The position numbers and the translations under genes were made by a program. The notes under the pieces are model-generated. The model had not been told where the DNA came from, searched no databases, and saw only the letters and a list, made by a program, of their open reading frames with translations. Shown in pieces: positions 2,075 through 9,595 of a DNA stretch of 64,000 nucleotides (the first letter of the stretch is position 1; each line of letters opens with the position of its first letter). The stretch comes from Limisphaerales bacterium (GTDB taxonomy: Bacteria > Verrucomicrobiota > Verrucomicrobiia > Limisphaerales > UBA1412), in the NCBI GenBank assembly GCA_050949405.1, contig JBMNFQ010000001.1:2410727-2474726 (forward strand), written 5' to 3'.

Positions 2075-2256
2075 CGGCGACGCCGCTGCAAAACTCCCTG
2101 CTCGAACTCTATGGCCTTTCGACCCTGATCGATGACCGGCTGTTTGGTGACTTGGCATCTTTCAGAACGCAGTACATCAACTCTGGCGGTGATATTTCCG
2201 GCCTGCGGGAACGCCTGGGCGCATTCTGCTGGCGTTCGCTCCGTAGTCAACCATAA
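1927..2256 (+). pseudogene. Internal fragment of an SNF2-family helicase
   Basis: WDLVVIDEAHKLRN (motif II) and KKLLLTATPLQNSLLELYGL (motif III); no Walker A upstream and no helicase-C domain downstream. Confidence 0.85.
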
Positions 2257-2386
2257 TAGAAAAAACGCCTAAAATTATGTTGTTTCTTGTCTAAAATTGT
2301 CAGACTATACTTTCTTCATTATCAGATAGATATAAAGAAAATGGAAGAATTTGAAAGAGCGTGTCTTTTCTTGTCAATCTTTCTAT

Positions 2387-2424
2387 GGGTGGGGTGCGTA
2401 GGTGGGGTGCATGGGGGGTGTTCA
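2387..2424 (+). repeat. G-rich direct repeat, copy near left end (putative integrase arm-type sites)
   Basis: GGGTGGGGTGCGTAGGTGGGGTGCATGGGGGGTGTTCA; 35/38 identical to 9415-9452; contains GGTGGGGTGC twice, 13 bp apart. Confidence 0.8.
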
Positions 2425-2878
2425 AATTGAAAAGCGTTTTAAAGAGACTCTCAGAAAAGCTTGCCACTCCGTTGTGTCAGAAGCCCGTAGAATCGTTTCT
2501 GGCGCGTTTTGATTGTTCGGCCGGTATGGGAAGACCTGCCAGAAAAGGAATGATGCACTCCGAATTGTCCACTCACTAACTTGGCCGCGGCTTTGCCTCT
2601 TCTCGCCCTCCCACGGTAGAGACGTTACCTTGCCAGCTACCCTCCCCCCATAGGGAACCTCTTGGCTCAAAACTTCTATATGCCGGTACCCAAACACGCC
2701 AGATTCCGCCCACTCATGACTTTTTTTTGATGGCCGAATACACTCTAGTGCATCCGGTGTTGCCATCTGCCAGAAAAAATTTGGAAACACTTTTTTGGCC
2801 CCTCGTTTGAGAAGAACGGCCCTCTGGCAATCGGAACCTGCTACGGGGGGTCCCTAAAAAGATTCCTTATAGGGGGGG

Positions 2879-3068
2879 CTTCAAAACTCTCGCGCGCGCG
2901 CGCGCGGGGGGACTTTTGAAGTTATGAAGTTTTATAGGATAAGTATATATATATCAATTACTTATAACCTTCAAAACTAGTTTTGGAGGTTTTGAAGGTA
3001 TAGAGGTCAAACCTTCAAAACCCCCCTTACCTTCAAAACCTTCAAAACTCTCTGGGGTGTTTTGAAAG
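2879..3068. repeat. Putative replication origin: CTTCAAAA(C) iterons in both orientations, (CG)8 tract, TA run and IHF box
   Basis: Motif copies at about 2879, 2914(rc), 2968, 2979(rc, 1 mismatch), 2989(rc), 3011, 3029, 3038, 3059(rc, degenerate). (CG)8 at 2891-2906, TA run at 2944-2954, TATCAATTACTTA at 2952-2964. Lies directly downstream of the helicase gene. Confidence 0.72.
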
Positions 3069-3086
3069 TCAGTGAGTCTTCCCCGG

Positions 3087-4196
3087 CTACACATTTTCAT
3101 TGGGTGTGAATTTTCGTCTGTATTTTCCATCTTCGCTTACCAGCTCCCCGCTGTCCCTCAGCTCCCGGAGGAGTCTCTCCGCGGTTGTCTGGCTCATGTT
3201 GTATTTTTTGCGGCACATATCAATAATTTCAGCGGTATCAAACTCCTTTTTTAAGTCCGGGAAGAGGGATAGAACCTTTTCTTCCGTGTATACTTTTGGC
3301 CTGCCTCCGGTGCCGCCGCCGCCCTTTTTGTATGCTGTTGGGTCTTCATCCGGAGCCAGCTTCAAGAGAGGATAATCCTCTAAGCTCCAAACTTCATCTT
3401 CCGGGATAGTTTCGCCCCGGAGTGTGTATGTAGCAATTACATGTTTATTCTTCTCATGCGGCTTCAGTAATATATAGGTCTCAGCGATTCTTCCGACTGT
3501 ACCACTTCCAGATATTCCCTCTTGCGCTGTTCTACCGGAAATATCTCCCTTGGGAGCATGAGCGGTGACAATTATTGTGCGGCCAGTATCTCCGGCTAGG
3601 TTTCTAACGTCTCTAGCCAGCCTGCCCATCTCTTTGCTATTGTTTTCATCTATTGCTTCCGCCAGATAATAGAAGGGGTCAATGATAATAACGTCATAGT
3701 AATCGAGCGGTCTGCCTGTCTGTCCTTTCAGATTGTCATTCTGAAGGATTTCAGTCACTACTTCCAAATTGGTCTTGTTTCCGTCAAGTGTGTGTTTCAA
3801 CATTTGACTTCTGTACACAAAGCCAAGCTTATCTCCCGGATTCACATTCCAGCCGCGCATACAATTCTTTACTCTCCTTTTAACGGTCAAGTCCTTATCC
3901 TCCAAGGAAATCAATAACACATTACACGGTTTGCATGGGCGGCCAGCAAACGGGATCCCAGTGGACAAGGCAACTGCCATATTTATTATGCAGGTGCTTT
4001 TCCCGCTCTTGCTTTTGCCGGTAAAGAAAAACAAGTCATTTTTCTCGAGAATTCCATCTATTATATAATCTGGCTCTGGTATCTTTTCTTCTCGTAAATC
4101 TTCTGCCGTTTGGATTCGGATTTCTGATTCACTAGGGAGCCCCTGCAAACCCTCTGCAAGCTTTTCCGCTACCGTTTTTTCGATTGTTTCGCTCAT
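3087..4196 (-). CDS. AAA_25 / RecA-fold SF4 (RSF1010 RepA-like) replicative helicase with a probable C-terminal winged helix
   Basis: Walker A GKSKSGKS, LLISLED, Walker B VIIIDP, IVTAH..K, ISGSG; ATGA overlap with the upstream primase gene. Confidence 0.85.
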   Translation of the reverse strand: MSETIEKTVAEKLAEGLQGLPSESEIRIQTAEDLREEKIPEPDYIIDGILEKNDLFFFTGKSKSGKSTCIINMAVALSTGIPFAGRPCKPCNVLLISLEDKDLTVKRRVKNCMRGWNVNPGDKLGFVYRSQMLKHTLDGNKTNLEVVTEILQNDNLKGQTGRPLDYYDVIIIDPFYYLAEAIDENNSKEMGRLARDVRNLAGDTGRTIIVTAHAPKGDISGRTAQEGISGSGTVGRIAETYILLKPHEKNKHVIATYTLRGETIPEDEVWSLEDYPLLKLAPDEDPTAYKKGGGGTGGRPKVYTEEKVLSLFPDLKKEFDTAEIIDMCRKKYNMSQTTAERLLRELRDSGELVSEDGKYRRKFTPNENV

Positions 4197-5332
4197 TCCG
4201 CGCCTCCTTCCGGCAATTGAATTTCAGGGAAGGGCTCAGCATCTTCAGCCAGTTGGGCAACCGCTCTGGCCGCCTCCATCCTCGCCAGAACCGCGGCTCT
4301 GGTTTCTCTTAGCGGCATTTTAAGAATGGAGGTATAGGACGGATCCGGATTCAGGTATAGGAGCCGTTGTTCTTTGCCCGTGCTCCCCCGAAGGCAGCCC
4401 GGAAGCCTGCAGGTTTGCTGAATTTGAAACATAGCCGGGTCAGCTCCATAGGGTTTAAGTTTTTCCTTCAATATTTCAGCACACTTTTTCCACTCTGCCA
4501 AAGTGGAAACCTTCACTTTAACGAGAGTATGGACAGACTTCCCGCCCGTCTCAAAGATTGCGGCAATGGGTATAGGAAGCGTTACTATAAACTTCAGCCA
4601 GTCAGCGGGCCTCACTGTATCGGATTCAAAGGCTATGTATTTGAAGGAAGAAACCGCCTCTTTGCATCGGTATGAAAGCCCACCATTCTGATTCTTCATC
4701 CGCTGGCCTGTGATAGGGTTGGGTAAGTACCAAACGCCTTCGGAATTCTCAATTGAGATTCTCTGAAGCGTCTCCAAGGTCTCACGGCTTCCGGCCTTCA
4801 GGATATGGCCCTCTTTGCTTCTCAGCTTAGTGGTAACGAAAAGCTTTTCCCCCGGCTCATACAAACGGGCCAGAAAAGAAGCCGCGGATTGAGAATCTGG
4901 CACAATGGGGGAATGCCACCATAGCCAGTCAAAAGTAATTTTTTGCATCACGTCTTTAATCACTTCTGACAGTAAATGATACCCGTTTTGGCTTGATTTA
5001 TTGGTCGGTTGCTTGTATGGTTTCTTTGTGTTTTGAGTGTATTTAGCGCCTCCCGTGAGGGCGGCGCTGTCTACTATTCTCAAGACATCCTGGACTTTGT
5101 GTTCAGTCTCCAAGGGAGTGAACCGCGGCTGGCAGCGTGCTTCATTCACCATTTCAGCCCATTCCCTTATTCTTTCGGGGAACCGCTGGGCACATGCAAG
5201 CAGGGCATTGAAAAAGCTCTTCTCGCCTTCCCCATTCGTTCCTTCCTGGCAAGGGAGAATATATTGAAGTTTCCAGCCTGCCCACTCTTCAAAAGTTTCA
5301 TCCTTGAAGCTATTCATTATGAATTTTTTCAT
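4193..5332 (-). CDS. AEP-type DNA primase (RepB'-primase-like) with an N-terminal helical PriCT-like region; alternative GTG start at 5410
   Basis: FESD acidic motif, TGGKSVH motif, DP..Q..RLPG..R motif; GGAG at 5344-5347 upstream of ATG 5332. Confidence 0.72.
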   Translation of the reverse strand: MKKFIMNSFKDETFEEWAGWKLQYILPCQEGTNGEGEKSFFNALLACAQRFPERIREWAEMVNEARCQPRFTPLETEHKVQDVLRIVDSAALTGGAKYTQNTKKPYKQPTNKSSQNGYHLLSEVIKDVMQKITFDWLWWHSPIVPDSQSAASFLARLYEPGEKLFVTTKLRSKEGHILKAGSRETLETLQRISIENSEGVWYLPNPITGQRMKNQNGGLSYRCKEAVSSFKYIAFESDTVRPADWLKFIVTLPIPIAAIFETGGKSVHTLVKVKVSTLAEWKKCAEILKEKLKPYGADPAMFQIQQTCRLPGCLRGSTGKEQRLLYLNPDPSYTSILKMPLRETRAAVLARMEAARAVAQLAEDAEPFPEIQLPEGGAE

Positions 5333-5400
5333 ATTCTTTTTGTCTCCTTTCTCCGAAGCGGCCCCCCGGGGGCAATGGGGAGCCGCATTCAGAATCTTGT

Positions 5401-9190: not shown

Positions 9191-9204
9191 AATTTTTTTG
9201 AATA

Positions 9205-9228
9205 GGTGGGGTGCGTGAGTGGGGTACA
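9205..9228 (+). repeat. Third, shorter copy of the G-rich arm-type repeat, just upstream of the int start
   Basis: GGTGGGGTGCGTGAGTGGGGTACA; 21/24 identical to 2388-2411. Confidence 0.7.
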
Positions 9229-9414
9229 CGGCGCAAAGGCATAGGGAGCACAAAGGAAATTTGAATTCTCCGGTTTAGAATTGCTCTTTTTCCCGGTCAG
9301 CTCTCTAAGTTGAAAAATTCGTCTTTTCACAAAGCGGCTTTCTTTGCTAAGTCACAATGTAAACCTTTGTCTTTTGTTGGTCAACCCTTGCAGGCTATGC
9401 GTGGAAAAAGTGGG

Positions 9415-9452
9415 GGGTGGGGTGCGTAGGTGGGGGACAAGGGGGGTGTTCA
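9415..9452 (+). repeat. G-rich direct repeat, copy near the tRNA end (putative arm-type sites)
   Basis: GGGTGGGGTGCGTAGGTGGGGGACAAGGGGGGTGTTCA; 35/38 identical to 2387-2424. Confidence 0.8.
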
Positions 9453-9490
9453 GCTATTTTTCTGGCTTTTTTAGAAAACACGCATTTTCG

Positions 9491-9503
9491 TAAGTGATTG
9501 ATT
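9491..9503 (-). promoter_or_regulatory. IHF consensus site between the arm repeat and the tRNA
   Basis: Reverse complement AATCAATCACTTA matches WATCAANNNNTTR exactly, at the position expected in an att site. Confidence 0.6.
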
Positions 9504-9519
9504 GGGAAGTCTTTTGAAG

Positions 9520-9595
9520 TGGTACCCCGGCTAGGACTCGAACCTAGGACCAATTGATTAAGAGTCAACTGCTCTACCAACTGAGCTACCGAGGC
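9520..9595 (-). tRNA. tRNA-Lys (anticodon CTT)
   Basis: GCCTCGGTAGCTCAGTTGGTAGAGCAGTTGACTCTTAATCAATTGGTCCTAGGTTCGAGTCCTAGCCGGGGTACCA: 76-nt cloverleaf, TTCGA T-loop, encoded CCA. Confidence 0.97.

Follow-up and report, generated by a model that had tools for sequence, protein, structure and literature searches.

A cluster of five genes beside a lysine tRNA gene in a Limisphaerales bacterium raises the question of whether so small a set is a mobile element in its own right and, if so, how it integrates, replicates and spreads. We analyzed this locus within a 64-kb stretch of contig JBMNFQ010000001.1 (hereafter the window), on whose numbering the coordinates of the element are given. The element spans positions ~2247-9569 (~7.3 kb), with limits taken from its relatives, and adjoins tRNA-Lys(CTT). 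Our results establish that this segment is a real, discrete and minimal mobile integrative element with its own replication module: a genuine integrative replicon, minimal in content and mobile in the recent past, that belongs to a family specific to the Planctomycetes-Verrucomicrobia-Chlamydiae (PVC) group. Beyond this, we consider it reasonably probable that the element represents a family of small elements, restricted to the PVC group, whose members integrate, replicate themselves and need a helper for transfer; the view that it lives like a phage satellite or a mobilisable island is partly supported.

Downstream of tRNA-Lys(CTT), the minus strand carries all genes of the element in the order int, orf496, xis, primase and helicase, and all five are intact in the window copy. 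Searches of the element proteins against Pfam, PHROGs, NCBIfam and PADLOC returned no match to capsid or other structural, terminase, relaxase or type IV secretion system (T4SS) families, and no coupling protein family was matched in any of the five. An earlier reading made from the letters of the window (the sequence-only reading) had proposed a minimal self-replicating integrative element at tRNA-Lys without detectable packaging or transfer genes, carried by a probable PVC host; profile searches, motifs and relatives confirm the former, and the host indeed belongs to the Verrucomicrobiota. Its gene identities hold for the integrase, the Xis-like helix-turn-helix (HTH) protein, the gene of unknown function and the iterons, but the primase is an archaeo-eukaryotic primase (AEP) and the helicase is RepA-like, with only a marginal DnaB_C match. 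The features of the element and of its attachment (att) sites are as follows.

9520-9595, minus strand: tRNA-Lys(CTT), which forms the left attachment site, attL (ARAGORN; Rfam, 71 bits).
9191-9519, minus strand: left (int-proximal) arm, with G-rich arm-type repeats GGTGGGGTGCGT (plus strand) at 9415-9452 and 9191-9241.
7502-9190, minus strand: tyrosine integrase of 562 aa within a 583-aa open reading frame (ORF) (PF00589, E = 2e-11; HTH_20/HTH_23/Sigma70_r4).
5967-7457, minus strand: orf496, 496 aa; its model starts with a helical bundle and ends in a MerR/RacA-like HTH, which is swappable, and a basic tail.
5919-5943, minus strand: terminator-like hairpin after orf496; equivalent hairpins are visible in the relatives L216 and L218.
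5856-5885: three perfect 10-bp tandem repeats ATAAACGGGC (plus strand; Tandem Repeats Finder), a candidate operator ~90 nt upstream of xis.
5401-5766, minus strand: Xis/AlpA-like HTH_17 protein, 121-aa ORF (PF12728, E = 3.5e-9; TIGR01764, E = 1.3e-6; phrog_66).
4193-5332, minus strand: AEP-superfamily primase (RepB′/PrimPol fold), 379 aa from the gene-caller ATG, with the AEP domain in the C-terminal half.
3087-4196, minus strand: RepA/DnaB-like (AAA_25) helicase (PF13481, E = 9e-28; PHROG primase/helicase families).
2878-3068: candidate replication origin, with eight iterons CCTTCAAAAC in both orientations, each with at most one mismatch.
2488-2929: conserved non-coding region of ~440 nt between origin and right arm (nucleotide identity 82% to L002 and 93% to L103).
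2387-2424: right-arm arm-type repeats, 38 nt, 92% identical to 9415-9452.
2245-2256: where the element ends on the right (gene strand, ...CTATTATGGTTGA), with the aberrant right attachment site (attR); located by junction comparison.

The boundaries of the unit are clearest in its relatives. In L001, from the metagenome-assembled genome (MAG) JALNXY01, an 8.3-kb unit lies between 52-nt repeats that are identical at 51 of 52 positions; each runs from the anticodon stem of tRNA-Pro(CGG) to 3 nt past the CCA, and genes for an alcohol dehydrogenase and an aldo-keto reductase lie outside them. The proteins of this unit share 71-80% identity with those of the window element, excepting Xis (95%) and the gene in the variable slot. 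Three further contigs (L003, L006 and L010) carry DNA 99-100% identical to window positions 2245-4887 (to 6937 in L006) that ends in ...CTATTATGGTTGA and is followed by tRNA-Lys sequence from the anticodon loop through the 3′ end and then by the host genes cstA, tgt and nusA; in L003 and L006 a copy of 9496-9569 is present at this other end of the element. A direct repeat from anticodon stem to tRNA 3′ end is hence seen at both ends in L001 and at the right end of L003 and L006, but not in the window copy, where no tRNA-half repeat occurs anywhere in the 64 kb. The right end, which the sequence-only reading had put at 2251, falls at 2247, and what it is fused to is not a tRNA half-repeat but a piece of an SNF2 helicase gene.

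Three independent types of right-end junction break within 2 nt of the end of ...GGTTGA, the element continuing into the tRNA-Lys half (L003, L006 and L010), into unrelated DNA (L103-L105) or into SNF2 (window). Because these junctions lie so close to each other, TTGA is the likely point of strand exchange; the anticodon stem-loop at ~9553-9569 would then hold the core and crossover site, and the 3′ half of the tRNA (9520-9564) would be supplied by the element. In the relatives, the identity block classifies as the anticodon-loop type. A crossover at the tRNA 3′ end, between ACCA and YTTC, is suggested by the left arm starting right after the CCA at three tRNA genes, and would explain the left junctions but not the three at the right end. 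We judge this alternative less likely, since the three junction types break at the boundary of anticodon stem and loop and the anticodon stem is where the block of identity begins. With crossover in the anticodon loop, the tyrosine integrase would catalyze recombination between the anticodon loop of a tRNA gene and an attP that bears a tRNA 3′ half; attP would be expected to read ...CTATTATGGTTGA, the tRNA half and YTTCAAAAGACTTCC, and the tRNA would be rebuilt at attL from the copy that the element brings.

The catalytic domain of the integrase is split by an insert of ~120 aa with a sigma-70-region-4-like HTH (aa 394-438 of the 583-aa ORF). This insert is missing from 10 of the 35 family members aligned, across all of which R249, K274, H456-x-x-R459 and H491-Y492 are invariant. 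The motif GGTGGGGTGCGT occurs five times in the window (0.15 expected), in every case within the element, and its copies are distributed over both arms and the region upstream of int. A different motif occupies the same three positions in L001, and we read the G-rich repeats of both arms as putative arm-type integrase sites. The 38-nt direct repeat formed by 2387-2424 and 9415-9452 was also considered as an att site and rejected, as it lies outside the tRNA and related motifs occur upstream of int and inside xis; that it is arm-type is argued by L001, where a separate version occupies the corresponding positions and a true tRNA-half repeat is present as well.

Several lines of evidence show that the family has moved recently. 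A helicase identical to that of the window appears in 68 index blocks of a public assembly collection and lies in at least three genomic contexts, and the same five-gene unit recurs at different sites with 98-100% identity. When JALNXY01 is compared with the window, the chromosomal flank is 76.8% identical over 11 kb, the element part 96.2% and the integrase 99.8%; the excess of element over flank identity indicates that the element has passed from one species to another. This MAG harbors at least three members of the family. The sequence-only reading had made its proposal depend on the existence of intact homologous elements or circles; intact homologues, clearly mobile, do exist. The elements are also mosaics whose breakpoints fall at the borders of modules, for example at window 7453 (directly after int), ~5784 (before xis) and 4887 (inside the primase gene). 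At this last breakpoint, in several contigs (L003 462-1160 and L007 2662-3333), the AEP domain stands alone as a protein of 223-232 aa with its own GGAG and TTG start, and it is preceded by a 140-aa "recombinase" (phrog_14161) where the window element has int, xis and the helical N-terminal domain.

The sequence-only reading missed two aspects of this locus: the lack of a canonical attR in the window copy and the use of the same integrase at three tRNA genes. The exact 562-aa integrase and a base-for-base identical 330-bp left arm abut the CCA end of three different tRNAs:

tRNA-Lys(CTT): window, L094-L096 and L098.
tRNA-Arg(ACG): L093, a 159-kb contig whose flank holds alaS and an IMPDH gene.
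tRNA-Pro(GGG): L097.

Metagenome mis-assembly was considered as a source of this result and rejected: at the junction the tRNAs have only ~6 nt in common with each other, which would not suffice for a k-mer mis-join, and the contigs were assembled from independent samples. All three anticodon stems fit the pattern YTGA-N7-TCAR. If crossover takes place in the anticodon loop, a copy at a given tRNA has to bring the 3′ half that matches it, even though the integrase is identical. The simplest reading is that the integrase tolerates the three cores and that co-resident relatives exchange the tRNA-half cassette or, conversely, the int-plus-arm module through homologous recombination; a C/T difference at the first base after the CCA fits a conversion end point. 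A bolder version, which we advance tentatively, holds that the target is set by overlap identity with an exchangeable tRNA 3′-half cassette, the integrase reading only the shared YTGA-N7-TCAR stem, while recombination among co-residents swaps cassettes and the int-plus-arm module. If true, this would constitute a naturally retargetable tRNA integrase with an unusual HTH in its catalytic domain.

At the right end of the window copy, TTGA is followed by CTACGGA and then by the SNF2 helicase gene fragment, in frame. The seven nucleotides are the exact anticodon loop of tRNA-Arg(ACG), another target of the family. The same SNF2 junction is present in contigs from other samples (L005, L008 and L012) and is therefore inherited rather than an artefact. 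The three independent junctions within 2 nt suggest that the integrase produced it by recombining with a secondary site and that more rearrangement came later. In the window copy the overlaps of attL and attR differ at 5 of 7 positions, which would make precise excision unlikely, and this copy is probably fixed in the chromosome. The flank on this side contains:

6-446: end of sbcC, upstream flank (Pfam SbcC).
491-2256, plus strand: C-terminally truncated GmrSD-type gene fused to an internal SNF2 fragment (1906-2256), outside the element (Pfam GmrSD_N/GmrSD_C, partial; SNF2-rel_dom).

Just downstream of sbcC, the GmrSD-type restriction gene thus runs into the SNF2 fragment without its C-terminal nuclease part, in what looks like a decayed defence island. 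At the sites of L003 and L006, the host DNA just after the displaced tRNA-Lys half (L003 3150-3180, L006 4735-4765; CTTCAAAGAGCTTCCAATTCAATCGC) matches the left end of the element at 20 of 26 positions and may be a scar that an earlier member of the family left there.

The replication module consists of primase, helicase and origin. The primase has no Pfam match and matches phrog_2597 weakly; its identity follows from a confident AlphaFold model (pLDDT 84.8), from a Foldseek search with 3H20, 6ZP9 and 3H25 at probability 1.0 and with RSF1010 RepB′, the PrimPol of cyanophage S-2L, LigD-Pol and CAPP as top matches, and from residues invariant in an alignment of 40 relatives (E236/D238, S266/H268, D298 and R309), which place AEP motifs I (DxD/ExD), II (sxH) and III (hD) on the AEP fold. 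Some relatives of this primase carry Prim_Zn_Ribbon or are fused to AAA_25. The nearest annotated relatives of the helicase are RepA-like ATPases of phages and plasmids, at no more than 27% identity; its C-terminus (aa 305-353) matches the transcription regulator family phrog_1077 at E = 0.0083, with no independently significant stretch, and is a possible DNA-binding extension. The eight copies of CCTTCAAAAC lie within 190 bp, where all five exact copies of the 64-kb window are found, beside an AT-rich stretch (2932-2967) and a perfect (CG)8 tract (2891-2906). The adjacent non-coding region (2488-2929) could hold a cis-acting site such as pac or cos, or part of the origin. An ORF at 2422-2790 was rejected as a sixth gene, being frameshifted in L103 and less conserved in amino acid sequence (62% identity) than in nucleotide sequence. 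Among the features of IncQ-like replicons, an AAA_25 helicase, a RepB′-fold primase and iterons are present, and no RepC homologue was found. Following excision by Int and the Xis-like HTH protein, the circle would replicate from the iteron and AT-rich origin, driven by the AEP primase and RepA-like helicase of the element.

Between int and xis lies orf496, a gene of low GC content (0.38-0.42) whose product matches no family above any curated cut-off; the best match is DUF4238, at 21.8 bits against a cut-off of 27. It is a near-orphan, with 12 representatives among 1.84 billion proteins in an exhaustive hidden Markov model search. The middle part of its structural model is poorly predicted, and a Foldseek search of the Protein Data Bank (PDB) gave no significant match, the RacA HTH reaching a probability of 0.47-0.60. 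Identification as a defence protein, a relaxase or a capsid protein was considered and is unsupported by the sub-cut-off family matches, the 12 representatives and the Foldseek result. The C-terminal domain of orf496 comes in at least four alternative forms on a conserved body. Past the orf496 terminator, ~75-90 nt before xis (~200 nt in L218), the variants carry short tandem repeats of their own: GCCCGTTTAT three times in the window, ATCACCTTTT 2.8 times in L008, GCACCATCTT three times in L001 and TGTTCGGA four times in L218. In these four variants of the element, differing orf496-type C-termini are paired with differing tandem repeats at the same spot, a co-variation that suggests regulation of the xis-primase-helicase operon in the manner of Stl or CI. 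Through its swappable C-terminal HTH, orf496 most likely controls this operon at the three 10-bp repeats. The Xis-like ORF itself scores 28.6 against the TIGR01764 cut-off of 28.8. Near attR, L001 also has a 118-aa ORF (12235-12591, minus strand) with a Peptidase_S24/CI-like C-terminal domain and no counterpart in the window; its sequence hints at SOS-linked control in the L001 variant.

Among 185,579 species genomes we identified 29 integrase relatives, 28 of which are in PVC MAGs (Verrucomicrobiota, Kiritimatiellia, one "PVC group" and, counted with them, one labelled only "bacterium"). The weakest is a 54-residue partial match labelled Cyanobacteria. Most lie 130-330 nt downstream of a tRNA gene (Lys, Pro, Arg, Val, Ala or Gly), and the primase of the window element accompanies only integrase relatives of at least 40% identity. 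No att repeats of the 30%-identity relatives were found within 10-kb flanks. A larger relative, L218 (8301-17857; GCA_009930015.1, RZZE01000009.1), is composed of int, orf515, HTH_17, a 434-aa gene, a DUF3987 gene and an AAA_25 gene; tRNA-Arg(ACG) lies at its helicase-distal end in the opposite orientation, so that relative to its tRNA this element is inverted in comparison with the window.

In the search for free forms, a circular contig (L103 1-9998 and L104 1-9430; JGI Ga0209606_1006183 and Ga0209201_1005503) of ~9.86 kb, with a 134-nt terminal overlap and seen in two samples, was considered and rejected: it is a different element carrying a fragment of the window element. Its genes encode a 314-aa integrase, an Arc-like protein, Xis, a Toprim-DnaB primase-helicase and two unknown proteins, and it contains a 174-aa window-type helicase fragment together with an origin and a right arm of the window type (93-98% identity), the junction falling at the same TTGA end point. 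Two other contigs place a myovirus baseplate/tail-type gene (DUF4815, phrog_877) beside parts of the element (L007 1-2660 and L100 1-250). In L007 it adjoins serine-recombinase fragments and a truncated primase; L100, whose coverage is 1.1, has 78 aa of the L007 fragment (its residues 85-162, 100% identical) joined on at the arm-type motif immediately upstream of int. These contigs may reflect a link to a helper phage, or they may be chimeric.

With no packaging or conjugation genes of its own, we infer that the element must borrow a vehicle, and by analogy with satellites of the PICMI and VEIME types described below, this would most likely be a helper phage. An integrative plasmid spread without any dedicated vehicle, by vesicles, natural transformation or generalised transduction, and persisting by integration and vertical descent, is in our view rather improbable. 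It is consistent with a complete kit for integration and replication and nothing else, with the enrichment of tycheposon-like elements in vesicles (bioRxiv 10.1101/2020.12.28.424599) and with the assembly of a different small element of the same design, bearing this origin fragment, as a 9.9-kb circle (L103/L104), yet near-identical copies across hosts whose flanks share 77% nucleotide identity, and at several tRNA sites, imply efficient transfer. We give still less credence to an integrative mobilisable element (IME) that excises, replicates and, by way of an oriT or accessory protein that escaped recognition, is carried by a conjugative element co-resident with it, like NBU-type or RSF1010-like elements. 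Its replication proteins of IncQ type (RepB′-fold primase, RepA-like helicase and iterons), its absence from viral contig collections and the presence of two parts with no assigned function, orf496 and the 440-nt conserved non-coding region, speak for such an IME; relaxase, coupling protein and T4SS families are, however, unmatched in the five proteins, conjugative genes are in none of the flanks examined and the predicted fold of orf496 is a helical bundle with an HTH, not HUH or MOB-like.

That the genes are the leftover early region of a degraded prophage, the outcome that the sequence-only reading had seen as fatal to its proposal, is very improbable. About 80 IMG/VR contigs of 8-57 kb do contain primases at ~30% identity, and the two DUF4815 contigs place parts of the element beside a baseplate-type gene. 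Against this, L001 is a complete 8.3-kb unit closed by its tRNA-half repeats with housekeeping genes outside, the same five genes recur as a unit at different sites, and the visible flanks of the window copy are free of structural genes (on one side, 2.2 kb with sbcC, GmrSD and SNF2; on the other, transketolase and the housekeeping genes next to it); the prophage origin is largely refuted.

The helper-dependent satellite remains our preferred reading, and several observations weigh against it. The sequence-only reading had inferred complete dependence on a helper phage or conjugative element; our searches yielded no helper, circular form or virome copy. Neither end of the element occurs in IMG/VR, where the helicase is without relatives and the integrase family has one distant one, and no circular or attP-junction contig of the element was found. 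No empty attB was encountered, the distant relatives having no tRNA at the tRNA-Lys locus and the contig of the closest MAG ending at the tRNA. Inspection of the element identified no pac or cos site, terS, capsid-redirecting gene or helper phage. One integrase at three tRNAs goes unexplained by a simple model, orf496 could hide a transfer function, the variant L216 has no detected tandem repeat upstream of xis and the window copy, with its aberrant attR, may be inert.

Small satellite-like integrative replicons are already known in the form of PICIs (phage-inducible chromosomal islands), PICMIs (phage-inducible chromosomal minimalist islands), VEIMEs (virion-encapsidated integrative mobile elements) and tycheposons, and AEP primases have been described in small tRNA-integrated elements; the present element adds unusual details. 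The sequence-only reading thus overstated its case in suggesting an undescribed family, as the combination of int, AlpA/Xis and primase/helicase without capsid genes is documented across many phyla, including marine Verrucomicrobia, in VEIMEs and PICI-like tycheposons (PMC9618062; bioRxiv 10.1101/2020.12.28.424599), and also in PICMIs. The PICMIs of Vibrionaceae are minimalist islands of ~6-7 kb packaged as concatemers with the help of a known virulent phage (PMC10803314), and share with our element an integrase, an AlpA/HTH_17-type regulator or excisionase, a primase, a few unknown genes and the lack of capsid and terminase genes. They differ in lying beside fis and encoding a DUF3987/DUF5906 primase-helicase, whereas our element sits at a tRNA in a PVC host and has an AEP primase and a separate RepA-like helicase. 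The element consequently lacks two of the four mandatory features of the published PICMI model (PMC10803314). Of the accepted integrase families (PF00589, PF00239 or PF07508) it has PF00589 (E = 2e-11), and of the AlpA families (PF05930 or PF12728) it has PF12728 (E = 3.5e-9), but neither its primase nor its helicase matches PF13148 (DUF3987) or PF19263 (DUF5906) at E ≤ 0.01, and its neighbor is tRNA-Lys(CTT), not fis; the DUF3987 gene of L218 shows that a distant relative does carry this primase family.

VEIMEs and tycheposons resemble our element as small integrative units with integrase, excisionase/AlpA and primase/helicase genes, the tycheposons being flanked by partial tRNAs and the VEIMEs devoid of major capsid genes. 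PICI-like tycheposons nevertheless carry a packaging gene, for terS or the major capsid protein (MCP), and assign each tRNA its own integrase clade, in contrast to the single identical integrase at three tRNAs seen here; the VEIME module linked to Verrucomicrobia uses mostly serine recombinases, and both groups were found in virus particles or vesicles. The order int, regulator slot, xis, pri, rep and iteron-bearing ori, with a variable regulator gene between int and xis, recalls the PICIs of the Staphylococcus aureus pathogenicity island (SaPI) type. Our element is smaller, has other replication proteins and is without divergent stl/str promoters and without the packaging and interference module (terS, cpm, ppi or rpp), with no terminase or capsid match in Pfam or PHROGs; the relaxase (mob) of NBU-type IMEs is likewise unmatched in its five proteins. 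To the IncQ plasmid RSF1010 it is akin in its RepB′-fold AEP primase, RepA-family hexameric-helicase-type ATPase and iteron origin, but it has neither a RepC initiator nor mob genes, is integrative rather than a free plasmid and shows at most 27% sequence identity. Williams is said to have defined, in 2002, a tRNA anticodon-loop class of tyrosine-integrase elements. Our element resembles this class in an att identity block from anticodon stem to tRNA 3′ end, as seen in its relatives, and in an integrase gene adjoining the restored tRNA, and departs from it in the HTH insertion in the catalytic domain and in the pairing of the same protein with three tRNA cassettes.

Two components of the element are distinct from those of known satellites: its integrase architecture, with an HTH inserted in the catalytic domain, and its replication pair of IncQ-type AEP primase and RepA-like helicase. 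Of greatest interest as a lead is that one integrase serves several tRNA genes. Its identical copies at three tRNAs, together with crossover-point junctions to non-tRNA DNA, provide a testable handle on how integration sites are chosen and changed, and this integrase may be the starting point for a retargetable integration tool in PVC bacteria. The origin, primase and helicase could similarly seed a shuttle vector for organisms that have no genetic tools. For the biology of the group, the element extends the satellite-like design of integrase, Xis and primase/helicase with nothing else to non-marine Verrucomicrobiota and Kiritimatiellia, lineages whose mobile elements have hardly been described so far.

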